A stretch of 64,000 nucleotides of DNA. Origin: Candidatus Falkowbacteria bacterium RIFOXYA2_FULL_47_19. Its GTDB lineage: Bacteria > Patescibacteriota > Patescibacteriia > Patescibacteriales > UBA12075. Of the stretch, positions 2,987 through 61,894 are shown piece after piece; the first letter of the stretch is position 1; each line of letters opens with the position of its first letter. The position numbers were made by a program, and so were the translations under genes. The notes under the pieces are model-generated. The model had not been told where the DNA came from, searched no databases, and worked only from the letters and a program-made list of their open reading frames with translations. The stretch covers positions 84,306 through 148,305 of the forward strand of contig MFGB01000005.1 of the NCBI GenBank assembly GCA_001780275.1. The letters run 5' to 3'.

Positions 2987-5050
2987 CTAATTTTCGTCGT
3001 CCTGGGTACAGAAGTACTCGATCGTCTTCTGCGCGCAAGTACGGCAATACATTAGCTTGTTGAGCATCGTCGATATCATACGGTCGTACAATTTCTGGTT
3101 CTCTTCGTTGGTGCGGTTGGCTAGAGCACCGATCAAGCTCCCGGCGCCGGCGATATCCGATTTCAGGCGAACGTCGGTGACGGCTTTGACCAGTTCCAGG
3201 TTGTCCATGAAATCGTAGTTCGGATCGACCGAAATTTTCTGGCCGTAGATCTTACGGATCGAGGTGCGGAAGGTTTCCCGCTGCTCCTGGGTTTTTAAGC
3301 CCAGCCGTTCTTCGACCGATTTGATGAATCTTTCGTCGATCTTCATGGCGCGAAGTTCCCCGCTCTGGGGGTCCTTATACTTCCACATCTTGTCCGGACC
3401 GAGGTTTTCCGCGTCGATGCCGATGATCATATTCACATAGTTCATGACATCTTTGCGGATGGCCAGCGGTTCGTCCATATAGGCGTTGAACATCTCCGTC
3501 ATGATCCGTTCACGGTAAAGTCCCTTGGCGAGCTTGATGTCCTCCAGGAATTTTATACGGTCATTATTGTCGGAGACATAATCCAGGACAACGCGTTCGA
3601 GCGCCGTATAAACGTCGAAAGCGAAGAGGCATTTGCCCTTGGTGGTCGCGGAGCTTTCATTTAAGATCTGCATCGCCCGGCCCAGGTTGCGCTGGCCGAA
3701 GCCCTTTTGTCCGAAATGATCCATCGGGTTGGCTTTTTGGTTCAAGGTGTCTATCACTTCGGCCAGAGCCTTGACGGATTTTTCGCCGGCTACTTCGCCA
3801 GCGGCCAATTTCATCATTTCGATCGGGTCGAGCTTTTCGGTCTTTGGCAGGCGCATGAGCACGGCGGCCACGGAAGCGGCATAGACGAGATTCGGGTCTT
3901 CATGCAGGGGCTCGCCTTTGAGCGTTGCCCTTTCCCGGTCGCCGATCGAATAGCGCGTGAGGTCGTACTGGAGCTTGTAGTTGGTGTTGTGGGATACGTA
4001 GCAAATGCGGCATCGGTCGATGATCGGGGATTGCGCCTTGTCGGCCAGGAAGTTCGCGAACTCGGAATTATTCGAGGTGGCGATGATAAGGGTGTCGATC
4101 GGCCACTTATAGCCGTCGATCTCGATGCAGCGGTTCTGGATGACGCCCAGGTATACCTGGACCAGGTCAAGCTTGTTCTTGTAGATTTCGTCAGCGAAAT
4201 GGATTCCGCCGCCGGCTACGCGGGCGAGTGCCCCGCGCCGCAGGTCGAAGCGGTAAGGATTGTTCGTGTCGGTAATGTGTAAGAGGCGCTGGATCGATTC
4301 CTCGCCCAAGAGGTCAACGGCCGATGAGGTGATCTTATCTTTGGCCGGATATTTTCCGGTAACTGTGCCGAGGCTTTCGCTCAAGGGAACCGGAAAAGTG
4401 CGGACAAAATCGAGCATCTTGTCGATTTTGCCCTCAGCGTGCTCGCGGACACTATCCCAGATATAGCTGGTGCAGGCGCCCAAGGGACGGTAATTTTCGT
4501 AAAGCTTATCGATCTGTTCTTTGGAAAATCCGCTCTGGCATAGAAATTCTTGGTTTTGGGACTTGTCTTCGAAGAGGTTCATGGCCAGGATCATCGGATC
4601 CTCGTATGTCTGCGATTCGATCGTCTTGATCCGGCCGTATGATCCGAGCTCTCCGACATTCACGAACTTGAAAGAATAACGGCGATTGGCCGGCTCTGAC
4701 AGGAATTCCCGGTATTTGCGACACAAGAATTCCACGAAAAACGTTTTGCCGTTTCCCGGTTCGCCGATCAGCACAAAGGCCATCTCTTTCGAAGAGCCGT
4801 TCTCGGCCGCGTCCTTTATGAAAGACACGAGGCTGTTGATCTCGTCGTAGAGGCCGATAATGTGCTTTTTCCCGCCGCGAAAAATGCTGTAATCGAACGT
4901 GTCGGAGCCGTTCACATTGACGTCTTCCGGCATTTTCCCCAAAATCATCCGGGAAATACCCTGGAAAGCATTTTCGAAAATTCTCTTCCCGGAGATAATG
5001 GCGGCGATATGGTCATTCAAGGTGTTGGCTTCAAGCGACTTTGCGGTCAT
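2987..5050 (-). CDS. prkA: PrkA serine protein kinase / AAA-type ATPase
   Basis: 687-aa ORF with Walker A LIGEPGNGKTFF, an AAGGAG RBS, and typical PrkA length and sequence. Confidence 0.92.
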   Translation of the reverse strand: MTAKSLEANTLNDHIAAIISGKRIFENAFQGISRMILGKMPEDVNVNGSDTFDYSIFRGGKKHIIGLYDEINSLVSFIKDAAENGSSKEMAFVLIGEPGNGKTFFVEFLCRKYREFLSEPANRRYSFKFVNVGELGSYGRIKTIESQTYEDPMILAMNLFEDKSQNQEFLCQSGFSKEQIDKLYENYRPLGACTSYIWDSVREHAEGKIDKMLDFVRTFPVPLSESLGTVTGKYPAKDKITSSAVDLLGEESIQRLLHITDTNNPYRFDLRRGALARVAGGGIHFADEIYKNKLDLVQVYLGVIQNRCIEIDGYKWPIDTLIIATSNNSEFANFLADKAQSPIIDRCRICYVSHNTNYKLQYDLTRYSIGDRERATLKGEPLHEDPNLVYAASVAAVLMRLPKTEKLDPIEMMKLAAGEVAGEKSVKALAEVIDTLNQKANPMDHFGQKGFGQRNLGRAMQILNESSATTKGKCLFAFDVYTALERVVLDYVSDNNDRIKFLEDIKLAKGLYRERIMTEMFNAYMDEPLAIRKDVMNYVNMIIGIDAENLGPDKMWKYKDPQSGELRAMKIDERFIKSVEERLGLKTQEQRETFRTSIRKIYGQKISVDPNYDFMDNLELVKAVTDVRLKSDIAGAGSLIGALANRTNEENQKLYDRMISTMLNKLMYCRTCAQKTIEYFCTQDDEN

Positions 5051-31142: not shown

Positions 31143-32105
31143 TTATTCCTTAAGCCTGCCGCCGTTATGTATCTTTTTGTGTATATCCTTAAGCTGTTTA
31201 TTGGTCACGTGCGTGTATATCTGAGTCGTGGCGATATTGCGGTGGCCTAAAAATTCCTGCACCAGACGCAAATCCACCCCTTGGGCCAATAGATCAGTAG
31301 CGAAAGAATGCCGGATCGTATGAGGCGTGGCCATGACCGGCAGGCCGGCTATAACCACGTATTTTTTTACTATATTCTCAACGCTTTGAGTCGTAAGCCT
31401 GCGTGACTTGCCGCTTTTCTCGATGCCGGGTTTATAGTTGATGAATAATGCCGGATCCATGTCCGCGCGCTTGTCCAGATAGGATTTTAGCCATCTGACG
31501 GCCCGTTCGGAAAAATAAACGGACCGGACTTTATTGCCCTTACCAACCACGGCAACTTCAATTTCTTCGGCGGAGTTCCTTATTTTTAACTGATCGCGAT
31601 TAAGAGCCACTAACTCCGCCACGCGCAAACCCGTGGAGAACAATGCTTCAAGTAAAGCCCTGTCGCGTAGGCCTTGTTTTGTTTTAAGATCCGGAGCTAA
31701 AAGCAGCCTTTCTATCTGCTCCAAAGTCAAAAATTTTATTTCCTTATCATCCTTATCTCGGGCTAATTTTACCTGAGTGGGGGACAAGGAAGATATTTTT
31801 TTGTCAGCAAAAAATTCCAATAAGCTTCGGAGCGCGATCAGGTAGTAATTCTGAGTGGTTTTTTTAAGCGTCCGGCGCGTTTTCGGATCCATATGGCGCG
31901 ATAAAAATACCCGGTATTTCCAGACATGGTCGTCGTCTATCTTTTCGGGCTTAAGAGAGGAGAGGTTAGCGGCCTCTAGCCAGGAAAAAAATTTATGCAA
32001 AAACCGGCTGTAGTTTTCCTGGGTTTTACTTGATAAGCCTTTTTCGATCTCCAGATAGTCCAAGTAGTCTGTTAAATATTCTATTATAGGTTTATTACTT
32101 GCCAT
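31143..32105 (-). CDS. Tyrosine recombinase, XerC/XerD-like
   Basis: C-terminal catalytic blocks HTIRHSFATDLL and GHRNIATTQIYTHV, with an N-terminal SAM-like core-binding domain. Start chosen at MASNKPIIEYL. The track's 34-aa extension lacks support. Confidence 0.85.
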   Translation of the reverse strand: MASNKPIIEYLTDYLDYLEIEKGLSSKTQENYSRFLHKFFSWLEAANLSSLKPEKIDDDHVWKYRVFLSRHMDPKTRRTLKKTTQNYYLIALRSLLEFFADKKISSLSPTQVKLARDKDDKEIKFLTLEQIERLLLAPDLKTKQGLRDRALLEALFSTGLRVAELVALNRDQLKIRNSAEEIEVAVVGKGNKVRSVYFSERAVRWLKSYLDKRADMDPALFINYKPGIEKSGKSRRLTTQSVENIVKKYVVIAGLPVMATPHTIRHSFATDLLAQGVDLRLVQEFLGHRNIATTQIYTHVTNKQLKDIHKKIHNGGRLKE

Positions 32106-32257
32106 AACCTTATTATAACACAAATACCCTAGGGGATAAATATGAAAAAATCCCTGAAAACACAGGGATTTCATTATATAATACTTTGCATAATGTAGAT
32201 TAATCAAAGTATTATGTCTATAAAAAGGGAAACATACCTAAGTCTGTTTACGGTTCT

Positions 32258-52754: not shown

Positions 52755-54221
52755 TTAAACCGACATTTTTCCCAGATCAAGGTATTGGTCGATCTTTATC
52801 TCTTTAAAGAATTCCGGCATGTGGCTCACGAGGATCAAAGCGCCTTCGTATTGATCGAGAGCGCGGGCGATCACCGGCAGATGCCGGAAATTTATGTGAT
52901 TGGTCGGTTCGTCCATGACGAGCAGGCCGGGCTTCATAAGTACCAGCCGCGCGAAAGACAGGAGACCTTTCTGCCCCTCGGAAAGGTCGGCGACGGAGCG
53001 CCCCATAAGGTCGCCGGTAATAAGGAAGCCGGCGGCAACGGCTCGCATTTCCTGGGAATCGGTCCCTTCGGCCAATACCGCCTCCAGGCAATCGAAAACC
53101 GTCTGGCCGTAATCAAGCGTGGCGAAATCCTGGCTGTAATAACCCGTCTTGACGCCGTCTTTTATGCGCACGCCCGGATTTTGCCCGTTTACCAGTTCGC
53201 GGAGCAGGGTCGATTTGCCGATGCCGTTGGGGCCGGAGATCAGCAGCCGCCCCCGTTTCCGAATAGTAATATCGGTTTCCACCGTAACCGGTTCATGGTC
53301 CTTTATGATCTTGACCGATCTTATGTTGACGATGCCGCCGCCAGTCTCTTCGATCTCCTGCGCCGGAAAAACGAAATCCCGGATCGTCTTGTCCTCCCGC
53401 CGGATATCGACCATGCTGTCTTCGAGTTCTTCGGTCTCGTCGCGCATCTTCTTGGCGAGCTTGCGCATCTTTCCCCCCTTGTAGGCGAAAAAGTTGGCTT
53501 TTTCTTTTCGGTCCTTGATCTGCTTTTCGAGCTGGGCGTTCTTTTTCTGCTCCCGTTCGATCCGGTTCTGGATCTCTTCCACGACGGAAAAATAATCGCC
53601 GACGTAGGTTTCTATCTTTTTCGTGAAAATATCAAGATAAAGCACGCCGTCGGTAAAGCAGTTCAGGAAGTCGGCGTCGTGGGAAATAACGATCACGGTT
53701 TTTTCATACATGATAAGGAAGGTGATCAGGCTGTCGATGCCGTCTTTATCAAGATTGTTCGTGGGTTCGTCAAGAAGGAGGATATCCGGATTCTGTATGA
53801 GCGCGTAAGCCAGGAGGAGCCGGGCTTGCTGGCCGCCGGACAGATCACCTACCAGGCGGTCGGTCGGCACGGTCAGGTTAACCGCCTCCATGGCCTTGCT
53901 TATCCGGCTTTTCAGGTTGGCGGGAACTTCGTAAAAAGCTTTGGCGAAGTATTCTTCGAGGTTAAGGCCGAAATCCCGGCGATTGACCGTCTGTTCCGCC
54001 ATGCCGACGGAAGCCTTGTTGGTAACATGGATCTGCCCGCTCTTGGGTTTAGCCGTTCCCGCGATAAGATTGAAAAGCGTCGATTTGCCGGCGCCGTTCT
54101 GGCCCATAAGGGTTATCTTGGCGCCCTTGCGCACGCTGAAAGAAGCCTCGTCCAATAAGGGCTTTTTATGCTGGTATTCGAATGTCACTTCGTCGAAGCG
54201 AAGGATAACTTCCTCGGCCAT
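52755..54221 (-). CDS. ABC-F family ATPase (two ABC domains, no TMD)
   Basis: Walker A GQNGAGKST and GPNGIGKST, signatures LSGGQQ and LSEGQK, and a charged inter-domain linker. Confidence 0.92.
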   Translation of the reverse strand: MAEEVILRFDEVTFEYQHKKPLLDEASFSVRKGAKITLMGQNGAGKSTLFNLIAGTAKPKSGQIHVTNKASVGMAEQTVNRRDFGLNLEEYFAKAFYEVPANLKSRISKAMEAVNLTVPTDRLVGDLSGGQQARLLLAYALIQNPDILLLDEPTNNLDKDGIDSLITFLIMYEKTVIVISHDADFLNCFTDGVLYLDIFTKKIETYVGDYFSVVEEIQNRIEREQKKNAQLEKQIKDRKEKANFFAYKGGKMRKLAKKMRDETEELEDSMVDIRREDKTIRDFVFPAQEIEETGGGIVNIRSVKIIKDHEPVTVETDITIRKRGRLLISGPNGIGKSTLLRELVNGQNPGVRIKDGVKTGYYSQDFATLDYGQTVFDCLEAVLAEGTDSQEMRAVAAGFLITGDLMGRSVADLSEGQKGLLSFARLVLMKPGLLVMDEPTNHINFRHLPVIARALDQYEGALILVSHMPEFFKEIKIDQYLDLGKMSV

Positions 54222-54275
54222 AATTTAAAAAACAACTCTCAAACGAGTTGCGGCTGAAAATCACTGAATAAAAAA

Positions 54276-54512
54276 TTAAGCTTTTGATTCGATGCGTTCC
54301 TTGATTTTTATGATTTCCGACTGCAACCGGTCATGAGCAGCCTGGTTCGATGTTAATTCTTCGTCAAAATCCTGATGTTTTCTGGCGATACCATCGACGG
54401 CCGTCAGCACTTTATCGATTTTTTGGCTCAATCTTTCTTCTGATTCCCTGATAGCTTCTTTAAGGTCATCTTTTGTAACTATTTTATTAAATTGTTCTAT
54501 CGTCATCGTCAT
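54276..54512 (-). CDS. Small coiled-coil protein
   Basis: 78 aa. Its promoter -35 is supplied by repeat copy C (TTGACA 54588-54583, 17 nt, TATGAT). Terminator CAACTC/GAGTTG+T6 lies at ~54234-54258. Confidence 0.55.
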   Translation of the reverse strand: MTMTIEQFNKIVTKDDLKEAIRESEERLSQKIDKVLTAVDGIARKHQDFDEELTSNQAAHDRLQSEIIKIKERIESKA

Positions 54513-54582
54513 AATAATTGTCCTGATATAGCCTATAATAAACGATTAAATCTGTTTTTATCATATACTACAACACGAAATC

Positions 54583-54650
54583 TGTCAAACCGTTAAATTT
54601 AAAAGCAGTATTGTTTTGTTCACTCGGATTTTGGGGTAAGTTGGAAATTG
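54583..54650. repeat. Module copy C (decayed)
   Basis: TGTCAAACCGTT ... GCAGTATTGTTTTGTTCACTCGGATTTTGGGGTAAGTTGGAAATT. It aligns to the right arm and flank of copy A (about 17/23 and 22/29 identities by hand). Confidence 0.6.
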
Positions 54651-54775
54651 CTTATGAAAAAAAACCACCTATTTGCTAAGGTGGTCGCTATATTAAGCCA
54701 ATACCCCTGGTCGTCTTCTTCAAACACGAATCATTGCTCTTCCATCAGGGCCTTCTCGTTAGAATTTGCTTTCAT

Positions 54776-55129
54776 TTACTGTTTTTTAAACCAGCAACCG
54801 CTAATAAGGGCGTTGATTCCCCTGTTGTCTTTGATGGGTTCGCCGTTTTTGGCGATGCTTAGGCGTTGATGATGGCCCGAAACCTCTATTTCCGTCATCC
54901 GCTTATCGCTATGCCGGCAATAACCGAAGGGGGCGCCGCAAGAGCACATATTTAGCGGCACCGGCAGTACCGACAAAACGACAAAGGGGCCTTCGCCGAA
55001 TTTTTCAAAAGGACCTTCGCCGAAATATAGGCGTAATTTTTCATTCAGCTCTGAATTTAGCTTATTTTTTTTCCAGACAACCGCGTCATTGACCGAAAAA
55101 TTTTCCGGGCGTTCTTCCTGCGCGTCCAT
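54776..55129 (-). CDS. Hypothetical Cys-containing protein
   Basis: 117 aa with an internal FGEGPF duplication and its own promoter. Confidence 0.5.
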   Translation of the reverse strand: MDAQEERPENFSVNDAVVWKKNKLNSELNEKLRLYFGEGPFEKFGEGPFVVLSVLPVPLNMCSCGAPFGYCRHSDKRMTEIEVSGHHQRLSIAKNGEPIKDNRGINALISGCWFKKQ

Positions 55130-55189
55130 GGATTTACCTCCAATAATTATTTATTTGTTAAGAACCTGACATAGAATGATATTTAAATT

Positions 55190-55218
55190 ACTATAAACTA
55201 TTTATTAAAAAATGTCAA
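55190..55218 (-). promoter_or_regulatory. Promoter of the 54776-55129 gene
   Basis: On the minus strand: TTGACA (55218-55213), 17 nt, TATAGT (55195-55190). Confidence 0.55.
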
Positions 55219-55346
55219 GTCTGGTTTGCCCTAATTTTCCGGATTTTTGCATTAAAAATTTTTAAAAATACTGGACAAAAAAACCGGGCTTTAATATAAT
55301 CAAAGCACCTGTTTTTAATAAAAAGTTCATTGCAAAGGAGAGGGTC

Positions 55347-55601
55347 ATGGCAGAAGAACAAAAACAACGTCCTTTTCATGAAACAGTCATAGAAGCGTTC
55401 GATTGGTGCTCGGGTCCGCTTGACCACACGTTTCTGCTTCTCGCGCATTTGATTAAAAACACAGAAATAACAGCTAACCATGACAAGATCATTGCGAGAA
55501 TCGACGCTTTCTTTGACTTCCCGGGAGGACACGAAGAATGGGCGCCAACCATAGAAGAGCTTAAAAAAAGCATTCTTGAGCAAAAACAAAAACGATCCTA
55601 A
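55347..55601 (+). CDS. Hypothetical protein
   Basis: 84 aa with an AAGGAGAGGG RBS, followed by hairpin terminators at ~55611-55645 and 55656-55697. Confidence 0.55.
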   Translation: MAEEQKQRPFHETVIEAFDWCSGPLDHTFLLLAHLIKNTEITANHDKIIARIDAFFDFPGGHEEWAPTIEELKKSILEQKQKRS

Positions 55602-55714
55602 ACATAATTTTAGGGCGCGTATCTATTACGACGCCTTTTTTTAATTCATAGTTTTAAAAAAACCTCTTCGTTTTTGCAAACTCAGAGGTTTTTTATTTAG
55701 AGATTAGTATTCAC

Positions 55715-55969
55715 TTAAAAGGTAGCTACTATATCCTTTTGATTATGTTCGGTATTATCATCGCCGCTCCAAACGAATTGGTTTATTACAACCTTGTTGG
55801 CGGCCACACTCTTTATTTCCGGCGGCTCCAAATCATCTCCATAATCCCAATAAGTAATGGAATAAATATTATTATAGTTATCTGCGTCTTCGTTGATTTT
55901 CCAAACCAGAACCTTAAATCTTAACTGGTTATCCCTGGTCCCGGAAACAAATTTAAAAGCGGGTTGATG
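55715..55969 (-). pseudogene. Start-less 84-codon ORF (possible gene remnant)
   Basis: My translation: HQPAFKFVSGTRDNQLRFKVLVWKINEDADNYNNIYSITYWDYGDDLEPPEIKSVAANKVVINQFVWSGDDNTEHNQKDIVATF. It looks protein-like, but there is no ATG, GTG or TTG in the first ~47 codons. Confidence 0.3.
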
Positions 55970-55992
55970 TTATCGCACCGCTTAGGATTGTG

Positions 55993-56238
55993 TCAGACCT
56001 CGTTTAAGTCTATGTCGTATGACCGATAGAGATCGTAGGTGGGGCCCAATGCGGTTCGAGGATAGGCTTGCTCCAATACCTCTGTGAGCTGGCCCCTGAG
56101 TATTTCCGCCGATTCAGCCTCCTTCACCACCTCGCCGCTTGCGAGAATGCGTTGATCTCCGTCCCGAACCCCGTCTTCATGCTCTCCGCGACCATTAACA
56201 AACTCTGTCACTTTCCACTTAACGTTAAATTTCGGCAT
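55993..56238 (-). CDS. Hypothetical acidic protein
   Basis: Start moved to MPKFNVKWKV behind AAGGAGG. The leader has a GATAC-TTCG-GTATC hairpin. It is more GC-rich than its surroundings. Confidence 0.55.
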   Translation of the reverse strand: MPKFNVKWKVTEFVNGRGEHEDGVRDGDQRILASGEVVKEAESAEILRGQLTEVLEQAYPRTALGPTYDLYRSYDIDLNEV

Positions 56239-56321
56239 ACAGACCTCCTTCTTTTTTCTATTCACATTTGAAAAGTACCCGTAAAACGATACCGAAGTAT
56301 CATGACACCCTATCATCTTTT

Positions 56322-56428
56322 TTATAATAAGTCAAGCGTTCTCGCTCTCCCAAAACAAATAAAATAATACGCCGCTTTTTGCGGCGTATTATTTTATTTG
56401 CTCGGAACTTGGGACGAAGTTGGAACTT
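56322..56428. repeat. Module copy A
   Basis: TAATAAGTCAAGCGTTC-TCGCTCTCCCAAAAC, then the 19-bp-stem hairpin AAATAAAATAATACGCCGC-TTTTT-GCGGCGTATTATTTTATTT (56357-56399). GCTCGGAACTTGGGACGAAGTTGGAACTT follows. Confidence 0.85.
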
Positions 56429-56445
56429 TTTTGGCTAATGGTGGT

Positions 56446-57171
56446 TTATATTTTATTATTTAGTTGAGCTTCGTATAAATTAATAAGATTTTTTTTATGC
56501 TCGTCAGACATTCTGTCATATCTTACTGATGATTTAATAACTTCCGCGACTGTTTTTACCGAGCCTGTTTCTAAAACCTTTTTGACACCTAAAGTGCAAA
56601 ATGATTTTACGTCAGTGTCATCCCCCCAAAGACAGGAGTAGCCCGTAAATAATTTCTGATGATAAACGCCCATATAAAATATATCCTCAACTACGCACAG
56701 CGGCGTGGAAATCAACACGATCGAATCTTTTTCTATATGATGCTTGGGAACAGTAAGTTTTTTATCAGCATGGCCTACTATATATTCACCGTAATCAACC
56801 GTATTTGACGCTCTTTGATAAACACATGTTTTATTTTTATTTATATCTTGCCCCGCTTTTTGATAAAAATCCGGAAGCATGATATCAATTTGACAAGGTA
56901 TGTTCCCCCAAACGAAATGCAACGCCAAACTCTGTACGGTCCCACTCAGATAAACATCAGCGGATCTTTCCGCTAAGTATTCATTCTTCGGATCTAATTT
57001 CTTACATACCTTTTTCCAGTTTTCCAAATTATCTACCGTACCCACAAGATCAATATCCGAGCTTTTCCTGAACTGACCTCCGTAAGCCAACGATCCCACC
57101 AAAAAAACCGAGTTAAATAACGGTTTAAACGATAGCCTAAACTCTTCAAGAGCTTTTTGCCAATTTTTCAT
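56446..57171 (-). CDS. Pol-beta-fold nucleotidyltransferase (minimal NTase, KNTase-sized)
   Basis: GSLAYGGQFRKSSDIDLVG (GS..DxD) and a downstream CQIDIML third acidic site. Start set at MKNWQKALEEF, and TAAtATG couples it to the rSAM gene. The track's 60-aa extension would overlap the rSAM CDS. Confidence 0.75.
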   Translation of the reverse strand: MKNWQKALEEFRLSFKPLFNSVFLVGSLAYGGQFRKSSDIDLVGTVDNLENWKKVCKKLDPKNEYLAERSADVYLSGTVQSLALHFVWGNIPCQIDIMLPDFYQKAGQDINKNKTCVYQRASNTVDYGEYIVGHADKKLTVPKHHIEKDSIVLISTPLCVVEDIFYMGVYHQKLFTGYSCLWGDDTDVKSFCTLGVKKVLETGSVKTVAEVIKSSVRYDRMSDEHKKNLINLYEAQLNNKI

Positions 57172-57172
57172 A

Positions 57173-58249
57173 TTACATGAACTTGCTTTTCCAACCCTCC
57201 CATTCTTCCACTGAAGTAACCGGTTTATCAAGGGGGCAAAGCGGATTCTTATGGTTGAAGTCTCCGTATCTATTGAAAGTGGCGGCAAAACAATCCGACA
57301 CCTTGCAATATTTGAGAAAAATACACTCACTGCATTCATCCGCCCCTTCAAATTTCCTGATATTCTTTAATGTATCCGATTTTTCCCAAATTTCGTTGAC
57401 ATCATCCTTGTTTATGTGACCCAGGCTAGTATGCACGCCAAAGCATTCGCGGATTTTTCCTTCGGCGGTTACTCCTAAATAAGTTTTTCCGCAGGTACAA
57501 TGCGGTATGCTCGATGCTGCGGGCATTTCTTTTCCGAATAAAAATTCATAACAACCGGGGAGGCATTTAATACGCATTTTATCTTTATATTTTTCTTTAA
57601 GTGCCAGTACTCTGGGTATTATTTTTTTGAAATCATCATTCGTTAAAGCGTAACTATCATCAATCTCTTTGATATTCGTGGGACTGAATGCCCTGAAGTC
57701 AAGTTCTTCGACTTCGAGTTCGTACATTTTGTTAATAATATTTTCCACATCGTTTAAGTTGGGTTTCATGATCGTAACCCTAACCTTTCTCCTGAAACCA
57801 AATTTTTTCAGATTCTTTATGGCCCTGATTATCAAATCGAAACTTTTTGTATCTGGGTTAGGCAGAAAACCGTCATTGATCTCCGCAGTTGAACCATAGA
57901 TGCTGATCCTGATCCAATCCACGCCTATTGCCTTGAGTTCTTTAATTTTATCTTCATCCAATAATACGCCGTTGGTAAACAGGCCTATTTCTTTTACGTC
58001 TTTTTTCTTGCATAGTTTTATCGCATCATTCAGGTGGGGCCAGACCAAGGGTTCTCCTCCGGTCAGAATTACCAGTCTTAATTTATTCTTTGCCGTCACT
58101 TCTTCAATGGTTTTTTTAAAATCTTCCCAGGCGATACTGGCCTTTTTTTCCATTTGTTGTTGGCAGAACCGGCAGTTAAGATTACAATTATAGGTAACTG
58201 ATATTTTTAAATAATCGAGTTTATTGCATGTTTGATATTCTTTGTTCAT
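57173..58249 (-). CDS. Radical SAM enzyme with C-terminal SPASM domain
   Basis: CNLNCRFC (CxxxCxxC) at aa 22-29. The C-terminal Cys pattern is CGKTYLGVTAEGKIREC ... CSECIFLKYCKVSDC ... PLCP. Confidence 0.85.
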   Translation of the reverse strand: MNKEYQTCNKLDYLKISVTYNCNLNCRFCQQQMEKKASIAWEDFKKTIEEVTAKNKLRLVILTGGEPLVWPHLNDAIKLCKKKDVKEIGLFTNGVLLDEDKIKELKAIGVDWIRISIYGSTAEINDGFLPNPDTKSFDLIIRAIKNLKKFGFRRKVRVTIMKPNLNDVENIINKMYELEVEELDFRAFSPTNIKEIDDSYALTNDDFKKIIPRVLALKEKYKDKMRIKCLPGCYEFLFGKEMPAASSIPHCTCGKTYLGVTAEGKIRECFGVHTSLGHINKDDVNEIWEKSDTLKNIRKFEGADECSECIFLKYCKVSDCFAATFNRYGDFNHKNPLCPLDKPVTSVEEWEGWKSKFM

Positions 58250-59174
58250 ACTTTTTATTTAAACTTTGAATATTATTGAATGCCGAAGTGTAGCTTTCGA
58301 CCGTCACCTCTTTTTCTTTGGCTATATCCAGAATTTGCCTGAACAATTTTAAATCGCCATCATAAACGGCGATTGCCTGAGGATGAAAACATCCGCCGAT
58401 ATAGATGGTTTTATTTCGTTTTTTTGATTCATCCATCGCTTTGTCCATCAACTCCGTATAATGCCCGACAATATATTTATCAACTTTCTTTTTATCCCAT
58501 TTTTGAAATTGCGGCACCCCCGGAATGTCCAGACCGGAAAAAGCCATATCCTGCCAGCCATGAGACGGCATCTCTATAAGTCCGTTAGAATATTTTCTTG
58601 GCTGGCGTATTTCATGACCGTCGAATAAGTCAGTTTTGATTTGCCAGTCTTTATTCCTCAGATCCGAGCTAACGTAGTGCATGCCGGCATTTTTGACGCT
58701 TTCTGTCAGTTCTTCGGAATTATTCAACCCCAGGGCATACCCCCTTGGCGCTCTTAATCCGATCGGCTCTTTGTGTAATATTTCGGATATAATTTCATTT
58801 GCCTTTTTTATGTCTTCAAATACCTGTCCGGGTGTCAGGGTGGGTTTATTCATTCCAACGGGTACGTGCCTGAACTGCCGATGAGAATAAGCGTGAGACT
58901 GTACATCAATCAAAGGATTATCTATGTTGAATATTTTTATTAATTCTTTATTATATAGTTTTGCGGCTTTTTCGACAAATTTTCCCAAGAGGAAGAATGT
59001 TCTGGATACCTTATATGAATCAAAAAGTGAATTCAAGCTTTTGACGATCGTTATTGTTTGATAAATTGCTGGTTTGATATCTTCTTCTTGGTGTGGTTGG
59101 TCAAACGGCGCTTCAGTATCGAATCCTAATAATAAACTCACCTTACGGAATGGTTTAACAATATTTGTTTTCAT
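58221..59174 (-). CDS. CE4 (NodB-type) polysaccharide deacetylase family protein
   Basis: Motifs GFDTEA, QSHAYSH and LRAPRGY. Start set at MKTNIV, because the track's GTG start at 59210 lies inside the -10 box. Confidence 0.8.
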   Translation of the reverse strand: MKTNIVKPFRKVSLLLGFDTEAPFDQPHQEEDIKPAIYQTITIVKSLNSLFDSYKVSRTFFLLGKFVEKAAKLYNKELIKIFNIDNPLIDVQSHAYSHRQFRHVPVGMNKPTLTPGQVFEDIKKANEIISEILHKEPIGLRAPRGYALGLNNSEELTESVKNAGMHYVSSDLRNKDWQIKTDLFDGHEIRQPRKYSNGLIEMPSHGWQDMAFSGLDIPGVPQFQKWDKKKVDKYIVGHYTELMDKAMDESKKRNKTIYIGGCFHPQAIAVYDGDLKLFRQILDIAKEKEVTVESYTSAFNNIQSLNKKYEQRISNMQ

Positions 59175-59200
59175 ATAATTATACTTCTTCTCGTTAAGTA

Positions 59201-59229
59201 AATTTAACACAAAAATATTTAATAGTCAA
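59201..59229 (-). promoter_or_regulatory. Promoter of the CE4-rSAM-NTase operon
   Basis: On the minus strand: TTGACT (59229-59224), 17 nt, TAAATT (59206-59201). Confidence 0.55.
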
Positions 59230-59328
59230 AAAATTTATCTTGCTGCCGTCCGTTCGAATCCCTCCCGCTCCCCCAAAAACAAATAAAATAATACGCCGCT
59301 TTTGCGGCGTATTATTTTATTTGCTCGG
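59216..59328. repeat. Module copy B (most complete)
   Basis: TAATAGTCAA..., then the tRNA-like 3' fragment TTCGAATCCCTCCCGCTCCCCCA (59253-59275). The hairpin AAATAAAATAATACGCCGC-TTTT-GCGGCGTATTATTTTATTT follows (59281-59322). GCTCGG then merges into tRNA-Gln. Confidence 0.85.
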
Positions 59329-59394
59329 GGACAGGGATTCGAACCCCGATACTCAGGACCAGAACCTGATGTCCTACCATTAGACGATCCCCGA
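59324..59394 (-). tRNA. tRNA-Gln (anticodon CUG)
   Basis: Hand-folded: acceptor TCGGGGA/TCCCCGA (U1-A72), anticodon stem TCAGG/CCTGA, loop TTCTGGT, T arm CGGGG-TTCGAAT-CCCTG, discriminator G. No encoded CCA. Confidence 0.85.
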
Positions 59395-59408: not shown

Positions 59409-59437
59409 AGTATACTCTAACTATTTATTTTTTGCAA
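59409..59437 (-). promoter_or_regulatory. Candidate tRNA-Gln promoter
   Basis: On the minus strand: TTGCAA (59437-59432), 17 nt, TATACT (59414-59409), about 15 nt before the mature 5' end. Confidence 0.5.
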
Positions 59438-60232
59438 GATATCCGGCAAGGCTTTTTTCGCGGCCTCTTCCCCGGCCCTGATGAACTTTCCCACATCCGC
59501 GAATTTAAAGCTGTCTATCGTTTTCCGGAGAACCGGCTGGATAAGGATCTTATCGCCGGAAAAACCGGCCGCGTTATGCCTGAAAGCCTGCGCCCGCATA
59601 AGCTCGTAAGCGTGCAGGAGGACGGAAACCAGGCTCGGATCTTCTTTTACGGTTTCTTTCTTAGCCATAAAATCAACTACGATGGCGATATCACAGCCGG
59701 CCTCGCCAGCGACGGTAACCGGCGTCGGGTTGGCCACGCCGCCGTCCATATAGAATCTTCCGCCTATGTTAACCGGCGGAAAGATCCCGGGTACGCTGAT
59801 CGAAGCCATGATCGGCCGCAAAAGATCGTTCTTGCTAAAGACCTTCTCTTCGCCGGTCAAAAAGTCGGTGGCTACGATGAACATGCGGGTGCGCAAGTCG
59901 CCGAATTTCCGGCCCTTGACCAGATTCTTCCGCAAAAAATTCCCTATCTTCCGGCCGCGCAAAATAGTTTTCCCCGGCCGGCCGAAGTCGATGAATGTCC
60001 GGAATATCTTCATCTTATTATCGTAAGAAAGCACCATTTCCTCAAGCTCATCGACGTTGCCGTGTATCGCGTAATAAGCCCCTATGATAGAACCGATGCT
60101 GCAGCCGACGACGCAATCTACGCGCACGTTATTTTCCAATAAAACCTTAAGGACGCCGATGTGCGCGATCCCCCTTGCTCCTCCTCCCCCCAAAACCAAA
60201 CCAATCTTTTTTTTGCTTATAGCGTTAGGCAT
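59417..60232 (-). CDS. Patatin-like phospholipase
   Basis: GGGGARGIAHIGV (oxyanion), GCSIGS (GxSxG) and MDGG (Asp of the dyad). Confidence 0.88.
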   Translation of the reverse strand: MPNAISKKKIGLVLGGGGARGIAHIGVLKVLLENNVRVDCVVGCSIGSIIGAYYAIHGNVDELEEMVLSYDNKMKIFRTFIDFGRPGKTILRGRKIGNFLRKNLVKGRKFGDLRTRMFIVATDFLTGEEKVFSKNDLLRPIMASISVPGIFPPVNIGGRFYMDGGVANPTPVTVAGEAGCDIAIVVDFMAKKETVKEDPSLVSVLLHAYELMRAQAFRHNAAGFSGDKILIQPVLRKTIDSFKFADVGKFIRAGEEAAKKALPDILQKINS

Positions 60233-60244
60233 GAAGAACGCGAA

Positions 60245-61894
60245 TTAGTTTATTACCCTTCCCCCGAAAGTCTTAAGCAGGTTCTCGATCATGTTGTTGG
60301 ACGGTTCCTTCGCGCCGTCATTGGATACCGATGCGCCGCCGTCCGCCGTTTCCGACGTTTCCGTCTTGGCCGCGGTTATTTCCGGGACAATATTACCTTC
60401 CCCTCCCACCTCGATCGTTTCATCGACGATAGCGCCCAGTATCAAAGGGCTGCCGTAAACCTCAAAAAGCACTTTTTCCACCATTTGTCTGATATTGACC
60501 TCCCCTATCCTGTCCTTGTGGAATTTATATTTAAAGGCCAGACAGAGCTCCCGGCCGTCGAATCCGATCGGCTTGCAGACCCGCAGTATAAAAGACAGGG
60601 AATGGTTGTATTTTTTTACCTTGGCCAGAACTTCGTTCCATTTAGCCGCGATTATTTCCTTGTTTAGCTTCCCCGGACCGGCTTCCGGCGCTGCGGGAGT
60701 TTTCTGATCTAACGCCGGTCCCGCCGGGTTGTCCGTACCGGCCGGTTCGGCCGGTTTCCGCCCCGAAGAAAGGGGCGGCCGAGCGCTCCGTTCGGGCGAA
60801 CACAATTCGAGGATCGCGATCTCCAGGGGCAGCTGTTCGATAAAACTGCCCTTAAGTTCGTTCCTAACGGCCATGAATTTTTCCGTAAAAGCGATTATCC
60901 GGCCGAGTTCCAGCCCGGAAATGATCCCGGCAATTTGCGCCTCGACCGTCTCGCCGCATTCCAGACCGATCTTTTCGGCTAAGGCCGGACTGGTTTTCAT
61001 GAGCATCATCTTCCTGAGGATCTCGACCAGGTCGGTTAAAAGCCTTTTAAGCTCTATGCCCTCGTCGACCGCCCGGTTTACGAGCTCGATCGCCCGGCCG
61101 GCGTCTTTTTGGGATAAAAATCCGATAAGCTTCACGACTTCGGAAAGGTCGCTTCTGGGTATCACAAGATCCGCTTCTTCGGCGGTGATCTCGCTTCCGC
61201 CGACGGCTACCACCTGCCCGAAAAGGCTTACCGCGTCGCGCATATAACCTTCCGAATGCCGGGCGATCGCTTCGAGTATGGCCCGATCGATCTTGATCTT
61301 TTCCTCTTTGGCGATAAATTGCAGCCTGGCCGTAATATCGCTAAGCGGAAAACGGCGGAAATCGAACCGCTGGCAGCGGGAAATTATGGTAGCCGGTATT
61401 TTATGCGCTTCGGTGGTGCACAGGATAAAAACGACGTTCGCCGGCGGTTCTTCCAATACCTTAAGGAGCGCGTTAAAAGCCGGGGTGGAGAGCATGTGCG
61501 CTTCGTCGATGATAAAAACCTTATACCGATAGCGCGTCGGCGCGATCCGCGATACCGCGATAACATTTTCGCGCACGTTATCCACGCCCGTGTGGCTGGC
61601 GGCATCGATCTCGATGATGTCAAGGCTGCGTCCGGCCGTGATCTCGCGGCAGGAATCGCATTCGCCGCAAGGATCGTGTTCGCCATCTTTGCGCCTGAGG
61701 CAGTTCAAGGATTTGGCCAGTACCCGCGCCACCGTCGTTTTACCGACCCCGCGCGGACCGCAAAATATATAGGCATGAGCGATCTTATTCGATTCTATCT
61801 CATGTTCGAGGGTAATCTTCACGTGGTTTTGTCCTACGAGGTCGCTGAAGGACTGCGGACGGTATTTTCTGTATAAAGTAGACATATTCAACAA
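60245..61894 (-). CDS. dnaX: DNA polymerase III subunit gamma/tau
   Basis: YRKYRPQSF, GPRGVGKTT, a zinc module CGECDSC, DEAHML and SRCQRF. Confidence 0.95.
   Translation of the reverse strand: MLNMSTLYRKYRPQSFSDLVGQNHVKITLEHEIESNKIAHAYIFCGPRGVGKTTVARVLAKSLNCLRRKDGEHDPCGECDSCREITAGRSLDIIEIDAASHTGVDNVRENVIAVSRIAPTRYRYKVFIIDEAHMLSTPAFNALLKVLEEPPANVVFILCTTEAHKIPATIISRCQRFDFRRFPLSDITARLQFIAKEEKIKIDRAILEAIARHSEGYMRDAVSLFGQVVAVGGSEITAEEADLVIPRSDLSEVVKLIGFLSQKDAGRAIELVNRAVDEGIELKRLLTDLVEILRKMMLMKTSPALAEKIGLECGETVEAQIAGIISGLELGRIIAFTEKFMAVRNELKGSFIEQLPLEIAILELCSPERSARPPLSSGRKPAEPAGTDNPAGPALDQKTPAAPEAGPGKLNKEIIAAKWNEVLAKVKKYNHSLSFILRVCKPIGFDGRELCLAFKYKFHKDRIGEVNIRQMVEKVLFEVYGSPLILGAIVDETIEVGGEGNIVPEITAAKTETSETADGGASVSNDGAKEPSNNMIENLLKTFGGRVIN

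Follow-up and report, generated by a model that had tools for sequence, protein, structure and literature searches.

A tRNA-Gln-proximal array of hairpin-bearing repeats and small gene blocks in a Falkowbacteria genome, read as candidate scars of serial insertion

In a 64,000-nucleotide stretch of DNA from Candidatus Falkowbacteria bacterium RIFOXYA2_FULL_47_19 (contig MFGB01000005.1 of assembly GCA_001780275.1, positions 84,306 to 148,305 of the forward strand; hereafter the window), three co-oriented copies of a short repeat, designated A, B and C, lie downstream of an intact tRNA-Gln(CUG) gene with small blocks of genes between them. How did such an array come into being? Repeated site-specific insertion is a well-known route of bacterial gene gain, and candidate-phyla-radiation (CPR) bacteria have tiny genomes whose gene-gain routes are little known. 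An earlier note on this DNA had read the array as gene modules acquired repeatedly at one tRNA-proximal site, or as a cassette array. We consider it moderately probable that the copies are junction scars of small, horizontally acquired blocks inserted serially at the 3' end of tRNA-Gln(CUG), and that the recombinase was lost or never carried.

The repeat copies and the interval that they divide

Copies A (56349-56405) and B (59273-59328) have 57 nt in common with one substitution and one indel in the loop (97% identity between 56349-56379 and 59273-59303, and 100% between 56377-56405 and 59300-59328), which bears out the description of the two as one module with a T5 loop in A and a T4 loop in B. 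The arms of both hairpins are perfect 20-bp palindromes according to the alignment, and not the 19-bp stem that had been reported, and the hairpin pattern was found at only these two places in the 64-kb window (chance expectation, 0). The RNA folding energies were -40.3 kcal/mol for B (z, ca. -10) and -36.0 kcal/mol for A (z, ca. -9). The stem is GC-rich at its top, closes in a loop of 4-5 nt and is lengthened by an A-tract and a T-tract, and it sits at the 3' ends of transcription units. The hairpin of B was detected by a terminator scan, and its right arm directly abuts the 3' end of the intact tRNA-Gln(CUG), the junction described earlier and now placed by the ARAGORN and Rfam coordinates. 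The A/B hairpin is a predicted bidirectional intrinsic terminator, which in B would be placed directly after the tRNA. Palindromes of 16-20 bp are usual among the other terminators in these genomes, and their architecture is like that of the module hairpin.

Copy C is a half-copy. The flank CTCGGA..TTGGG..AAGTTGGAA that it has in common with A, already pointed out in the earlier note, gave 2 matches in the window when 0.00 were expected, and the local alignment of A and C covers ca. 44 nt (the flank plus one decayed arm) with a score that none of 2,000 shuffles reached. C did not fold into a hairpin (-0.4 kcal/mol); a single decayed arm remains, the other arm having been lost together with the G-rich segment. 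Beyond the hairpin, the G-rich stretches of A and B are identical at 14/16 positions, a value equalled by 17 of 2,000 shuffles. The repeat represented by A, B and C is real and exceeds chance expectation.

The features of the locus are as follows, in order from the tRNA side.

60245-61894, minus strand: DnaX, adjoining the patatin gene
59417-60232, minus strand: patatin-like phospholipase (Pfam), the conserved flank on the tRNA side
59323-59394, minus strand: intact tRNA-Gln(CUG) (ARAGORN; Rfam tRNA, 58.6 bits, E=4.7e-11), standing at one end of the insert array; proposed integration target, attL side
59280-59323: hairpin of module B, 20-bp arms and a 4-nt loop, A-tract on one side and T-tract on the other (folding and terminator scan)
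59240-59279: G/C-rich segment 'X' of module B (the tRNA-like fragment of the earlier note), proposed conserved left end of the insert
59201-59229, minus strand: promoter-like site TTGACT-17-TAAATT with TG, ahead of the deacetylase, radical SAM and nucleotidyltransferase block (consensus scan)
58221-59174, minus strand: polysaccharide deacetylase, block E1 (Pfam, NCBIfam)
57173-58249, minus strand: radical SAM/SPASM protein, block E1 (Pfam, NCBIfam)
56446-57171, minus strand: 241-aa weak nucleotidyltransferase-like protein, block E1 (Pfam/NCBIfam)
56401-56431, minus strand: 31-nt repeat at the right end of E1, minus-strand AAAAAGTTCCAACTTCGTCCCAAGTTCCGAG, proposed attR-side sequence
56356-56400: hairpin of module A, 20-bp arms as in B and a 5-nt loop (folding)
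56337-56355: remnant of the G/C-rich segment in module A, minus-strand TTTTGGGAGAGCGAGAACG (alignment to B)
56300-56335, minus strand: possible promoter of the 81-aa gene, TTGACT at 56330-56335 with a poor -10; ambiguous
55993-56238, minus strand: 81-aa gene, block E2, no family match
55347-55601, plus strand: 84-aa gene, block E2, no family match
54776-55129, minus strand: 117-aa gene, block E2, no family match
54663-54686: separate terminator beside block E2
54605-54650, minus strand: copy C, comprising the right-end repeat (54623-54650) and one decayed hairpin arm (54605-54622)
54560-54588, minus strand: promoter-like site TTGACA-17-TATGAT, ahead of the 78-aa gene (consensus scan)
54276-54512, minus strand: 78-aa coiled-coil-like gene, the last block before ABC-F
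52755-54221, minus strand: ABC-F ATPase (Pfam), the conserved flank at the end of the variable interval away from the tRNA

The interval between these flanks (54222-59322) has a GC content of 0.388, and no other stretch of 5.1 kb in the window is as low (mean, 0.459; sd, 0.019). Block E1 has a GC content of 0.379, and its genes showed no homologues at the loci of the relatives. The three gene blocks that the copies separate are mutually unrelated and very small (0.2-2.9 kb), and the gene strand near the array is minus for all but the 84-aa gene. The 81-, 84- and 117-aa proteins showed no match in Pfam, PHROGs, NCBIfam or PADLOC. Searches of the cargo against PHROGs, PADLOC and NCBIfam gave generic radical SAM/SPASM and deacetylase matches only, with no phage or defence assignment. 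The patatin and ABC-F of the window are identical to proteins of RIFOXYC2_FULL_46_15, and FtsX is identical to that of RIFOXYB2_FULL_47_14.

The G/C-rich segment of B had been described as a tRNA-like 3' end with an encoded CCA, a description that the searches did not uphold. Infernal with Rfam gave no partial tRNA match for the segment, no T-stem partner was found, and in the module region only the tRNA itself passed the Rfam threshold, the remaining matches being sub-threshold terminator look-alikes. The letters CCA stand where a C-run meets the A-tract of the terminator; CCA is not encoded in the tRNA genes of this organism (5/5 examined) and is absent also from the copy in the sister species L121. 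The CCA in module B is coincidental. The candidate reading of the segment as a piece of a second convergent tRNA, possibly a tRNA-His with C before CCA, was rejected because the host tRNA genes and the sister copy lack CCA and neither T-stem pairing nor an Infernal match was obtained. The segment holds an exact 12-mer, GTTCGAATCCCT, which is that of the tRNA-Gln T arm in inverted orientation and beats all 2,000 shuffles. The whole of this T-loop-like part is missing from copy A in a global alignment to B, a greater loss than the deletion of ca. 9 nt that had been suggested.

Each copy had also been said to supply the -35 box of a leftward transcription unit. The consensus scan matched 11/12 positions at the C site and 9/12 at the B site, and at copy A it picked TTGGGA-18-TATTAT (56353-56324) instead of the TTGACT pair. 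Promoter-like sites were not enriched over shuffles (19 vs 14.5±3.6). On the strength of the consensus matches, the sites at C and B may serve as promoters of the units that follow, and that at A is ambiguous.

Relatives at the two tRNA-Gln loci

A relative, L013 (ABC-F, 72% identical; patatin, 45-49%), keeps the order DnaX-patatin-tRNA-Gln...ABC-F, and its interval is occupied by 1.4 kb of different small genes, with homologues of 0/7 of the interval proteins of the window. An empty site in relatives, as envisaged in the earlier note, was not found, and L013 retains the flanks with unrelated genes between them. In another Falkowbacteria genome, an acetyltransferase and a malic enzyme follow tRNA-Gln. 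Around ABC-F orthologues at 75-76% identity synteny is gone and no tRNA is nearby. A patatin-profile search of the genome collection gave, among the matches listed, mostly distant phyla and one useful locus, RIFOXYD12_FULL_34_57. Exact-protein look-ups with patatin, ABC-F and the radical SAM protein showed that all matching assemblies carry the same array in identical contexts. As a side observation, a type III restriction-modification pair and a gene with an AbiEii domain stand ahead of the 76% ABC-F orthologue in a more distant member of the Patescibacteria (L108:1-9700).

Members of the repeat family were also found at the second glutamine tRNA gene of the window species, tRNA-Gln(UUG), which comes after FtsX in L096. 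A copy of the 31-nt repeat lies ca. 190 nt 3' of this tRNA (L096:11235-11265), ends in CCGAG and is followed by a terminator hairpin; it is identical to the A repeat at 25/31 positions, a value equalled by 2 of 2,000 shuffles. A fourth module hairpin, D, lies ca. 2.45 kb downstream of tRNA-Gln(UUG); its left arm is truncated, and it has the G-rich segment in a version of its own. The GC content after this tRNA in L096 is 0.377 vs 0.482 upstream. Taken over both loci, the count is two intact module hairpins in 64 kb and one further copy in 21 kb, each of them lying downstream of a tRNA-Gln gene.

In L015, whose FtsX is 81% identical, the hairpin after tRNA-Gln(UUG) is 100% identical to that of B, and the window species has an unrelated hairpin at the orthologous position. 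The hairpin is the same at non-orthologous sites and different at orthologous ones, and therefore it moves with the insert and not with the locus. L015 also carries a gene pair, encoding a nucleotidyltransferase and an HI0074-like substrate-binding protein (L015:1521-2213), between its FtsX and tRNA-Gln genes, and this pair is absent from the window species.

The sister species L121 (GCA_043801965.1; FtsX 99% identical at the protein level, core genes 90-93% at the DNA level) has a B-type module after tRNA-Gln(UUG). It is 86.8% identical over 167 nt and includes the 20-mer AGCGGGAGGGATTCGAACGG, which is also present in the B segment of the window. The outer arms of its hairpin are identical to those of B, and the GC core has been exchanged for a different, still complementary sequence; this compensatory change fits selection on the fold, as expected for a terminator. 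Besides, L121 contains a perfect 20-nt direct repeat, AATCCCTGTCCCCGAGCAAA, ca. 185 nt beyond the copy that belongs to tRNA-Gln(UUG) itself. The repeat consists of the last 16 nt of the tRNA, starting from the T loop, plus 4 nt beyond it, and it is followed by another terminator. The genes farther downstream of tRNA-Gln(UUG) differ between L121 and L096.

A homologue of the 78-aa gene occurs in L121 (L121:10968-11201; 64% identical, 50/78) with a homologous terminator, beside FtsX and upstream of tRNA-Gln(UUG). Hence this small coiled-coil-like gene occurs at both tRNA-Gln loci. Just after a hairpin orthologous to hp2 of L096, the end of the L121 contig (L121:14101-14350) encodes ...DRGSENLGYEEIEKELGFDCYYAHAYHSWERGSNENLNGLI. 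This end resembles the C-terminal part of IS30-type transposases, a reading that was dropped after Pfam gave no match for the fragment.

Readings of the array

On the reading that we favour, the blocks would have been inserted one after another by site-specific recombination, with a tyrosine integrase as the likely agent, to leave a tandem array of decayed islets like that of cis-mobilizable elements (CIMEs). All blocks would come from a single family of elements whose ends are conserved. The left end would comprise the bidirectional terminator hairpin after the tRNA (or after the preceding block), a G-rich motif resembling an inverted T loop and an outward promoter-like site, and the right end would be the 31-nt repeat, which in E1 terminates in CCGAG, the letters that also end tRNA-Gln. 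The order from the tRNA may then be described as tRNA-Gln, B, the deacetylase, radical SAM and nucleotidyltransferase genes, A, the 81-, 84- and 117-aa genes, C, the 78-aa gene and ABC-F, in which B would be the junction of the tRNA with islet 1, A that of islets 1 and 2, and C a decayed junction of islet 2 with an older segment carrying the 78-aa gene. The parent element would be recognised as a tyrosine integrase gene next to the hairpin and the GGGATTCGAAC motif at a tRNA-Gln flank.

Several observations count against this reading. The array has no recombinase: 0/7 of the interval proteins match integrase or recombinase families in Pfam, PHROGs, NCBIfam or PADLOC, in agreement with the earlier statement that no integrase lies within 54-60 kb, and no integrase was found in the related inserts either. 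The sole tyrosine recombinase in the 64 kb is of the Xer type (31143-32207, minus strand; 238 bits with the XerD model, cut-off 330) and lies 27 kb from the array. The flank of A and C, which had been likened to the T-arm/acceptor part of tRNA-Gln, scored the same as shuffles against the tRNA-Gln 3' half, and A and C match the tRNA only in the terminal CCGAG, so that the distal repeats of the window, unlike those of islands in tRNA genes, are not recognisable tRNA fragments beyond these letters. The clean direct repeat occurs in L121 only, at the other tRNA-Gln gene and around a non-coding insert of ca. 185 nt. Derived characters are common to A, C and the L096 copy; these need an element-borne origin or gene conversion, independent decay being insufficient. 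Module copies were sought in ca. 100 kb of these genomes, and further copies may lie elsewhere. No empty site, circular junction or strain polymorphism came to light in assemblies whose marker proteins are identical, and no recombinase accompanies the array; current mobility is therefore unproven. Serial acquisition at a tRNA-proximal site, as originally proposed, is largely upheld, has independent backing from the anomalous composition, the content of L013, the members at tRNA-Gln(UUG) and the repeat in L121, and loses several of its specifics.

The absence of a nearby integrase fits a reading without any site-specific recombinase, in which the junction was duplicated locally by unequal or illegitimate recombination or by gene conversion between the tRNA-Gln loci, foreign genes entered by homologous replacement between the conserved flanks after DNA uptake, and the palindrome is merely fragile or recombinogenic. 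That the flank of A and C is not significantly tRNA-like, and that palindromes of 16-20 bp are the normal terminator style here, whereby B need not be special, agree with this reading as well. Exchange between copies is further suggested by L118, a low-coverage contig of another sample in which the left arm of A is joined to the loop, right arm and flank of D (3040-3165; L096:13526-13605), with 98.75% identity to copy D over the last 80 nt. L118 could be a recombinant between copies or an assembly chimera; the idea that it represents a strain variant with other cargo after copy A was dropped when its end matched copy D. Local duplication leaves unexplained why paired identical end sequences stand on both ends of two unrelated blocks, why the copies cluster only downstream of two tRNA-Gln genes, and why the repeat in L121 is a perfect 20-nt tRNA 3' end that starts from the T loop, and we regard it as rather unlikely. 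Another candidate is a dispersed terminator repeat of the repetitive extragenic palindrome or miniature inverted-repeat transposable element type, spread genome-wide and unrelated to gene gain. Assemblies frequently break at the hairpin, as they do at repeats, and at least 4 copies are present in ca. 85 kb of the window species; against this, every copy in the ca. 100 kb examined is no more than 5 kb downstream of a tRNA-Gln gene, and the rest of the 64-kb window has none. When metagenomes were scanned for the exact hairpin, 2 contigs only were returned, one of which (L014) has an unrelated hairpin, in a collection that is incomplete, as shown by its missing a known carrier. Scans of viral contigs with the hairpin, its outer arms, the G-rich 20-mer, the radical SAM protein and the tRNA-Gln 3' end gave nothing, or irrelevant phage-borne tRNA-Gln genes. 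A dispersed repeat of this kind seems highly improbable.

Two readings invoke ongoing movement. It is improbable, in our view, that a trans-acting recombinase still moves integrase-less, promoter-bearing mini-cassettes between the two tRNA-Gln genes of Falkowbacteria, with the hairpin and inverted T-loop motif on one end and the 31-nt CCGAG-terminated repeat on the other; if this is true, these bacteria of reduced genome size would have a cassette-exchange system specific to them. We hold it very improbable that the hairpin is itself a lox/dif-like site with 12-bp inverted arms and a 6-7-nt spacer, served in trans by a recombinase such as the Xer-type protein, and that promoter-bearing cassettes are shuffled between the tRNA-Gln loci by analogy with pdif modules or integron cassettes. 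Judged by eye, the hairpins could be taken for two inverted binding arms with CTTTTG or CTTTTTG between them, C and D resemble complementary half-sites, the hybrid junction of L118 lies at the hairpin centre, and an Xer-type recombinase is encoded in the window. Opposed to these points are the unequal spacers, with 5 loop bases in A and 4 in B, which would impede strand exchange, and the compensatory core of L121, which fits selection on the fold and not on a protein-binding sequence. No dif-like consensus was seen by eye, no integron integrase was found (the Xer-type protein scores 101 bits with that model; cut-off, 265), other terminators in these genomes share the architecture, and no polymorphism was detected among the strain assemblies. 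The cassette array of the earlier note, if taken as integron-like, is not sustained: besides the missing integron integrase, the arms are perfect palindromes and the blocks come with promoter-like sites of their own.

In many public assemblies, a contig stops within tRNA-Gln or at the module hairpin (ends of L009, L010, L015, L107 and L120). These breaks are likely caused by k-mers common to the two tRNA-Gln genes and by the repeated palindrome, and the contig ends are no evidence of strain variation.

Known systems and tRNA-Gln remnants in related species

Islands that tyrosine integrases have placed in tRNA genes are mapped by their signature, a regenerated tRNA and, in direct orientation, a displaced 3' fragment; the commonest attP class is the T-stem region (PMC4383910). 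The array resembles such islands (the Islander principle) in the intact tRNA at one end with insert sequence directly after it, in the low-GC variable cargo and in the co-oriented repeats at the block borders; the tRNA 3'-end repeat that begins in the T loop is seen in L121. It differs from them in having no integrase gene, in block sizes of 0.2-2.9 kb as against many kb in typical islands, and in that A and B have the terminator region in common instead of the tRNA body. For CIMEs in the ICESt1/ICESt3 family, tandem accretion of decayed elements is documented, with the integrase lost and the att repeats kept (PMC5704250). The elements of the array are likewise decayed, lack integration and transfer genes, have att-type repeats and are stacked at the 3' end of the target, where the three co-oriented junction copies bound three unrelated blocks in tandem. 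Unlike for CIMEs, no parent integrative and conjugative or integrative and mobilizable element with a matching integrase was identified for the array, and the host is a CPR bacterium, a group in which our literature search found such elements undocumented.

The hairpins agree with rho-independent bidirectional terminators in the GC-rich stem top, the 4-5-nt loop, the A/T-tracts and the fold kept by compensatory changes in L121, whereas a terminator function would by itself account neither for the conservation of the 31-nt and G-rich flanks nor for the linkage to tRNA-Gln genes exclusively. Short gene blocks split by palindromic sites are what integron cassette arrays and pdif/Xer modules have in common with the array. 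In contrast to integrons, the array has no integron integrase (no recombinase within 27 kb), no attI and no attC-type imperfect palindromes, and its blocks carry their own promoter-like sites and terminators, integron cassettes being mostly promoterless. As for pdif/Xer modules, known sites have arms of ca. 11 bp and a spacer of 6-8 bp, and the hairpins, with geometry judged by eye, show no dif consensus and differ in spacer between A and B.

The phenomenon is of a known kind, in miniature and recombinase-free, in a CPR bacterium, and reveals no new mechanism. On the favoured reading of serial insertion, the locus would represent an ordinary bacterial route, namely insertion at tRNA genes with repeated scars, at both tRNA-Gln genes of Falkowbacteria, with blocks that are unusually small, have no recombinase and bring their own terminator and promoter-like signals. 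The motifs can be used for locating further islets, and perhaps the missing integrase, in these genomes.

Remnants resembling tRNA-Gln were also seen in related species. Pseudogenes interrupted by several short GC-rich hairpin insertions occur at L121:11328-11530, L015:2216-2320 and L011:4545-4617; they have the motif GTCATCCGAC in common, and the first insertion is identical in two species. These pseudogenes immediately precede the real tRNA-Gln(UUG) or immediately follow patatin, and none is present at the FtsX locus of the window species. In the species represented by L011 (patatin, 78% identical), the sequence TTCGGGGcttgCCCCGAG comes after patatin (L011:4543-4560); it corresponds to both halves of the tRNA-Gln acceptor stem with a loop of 4 nt between them, as though the body of the tRNA had been lost.

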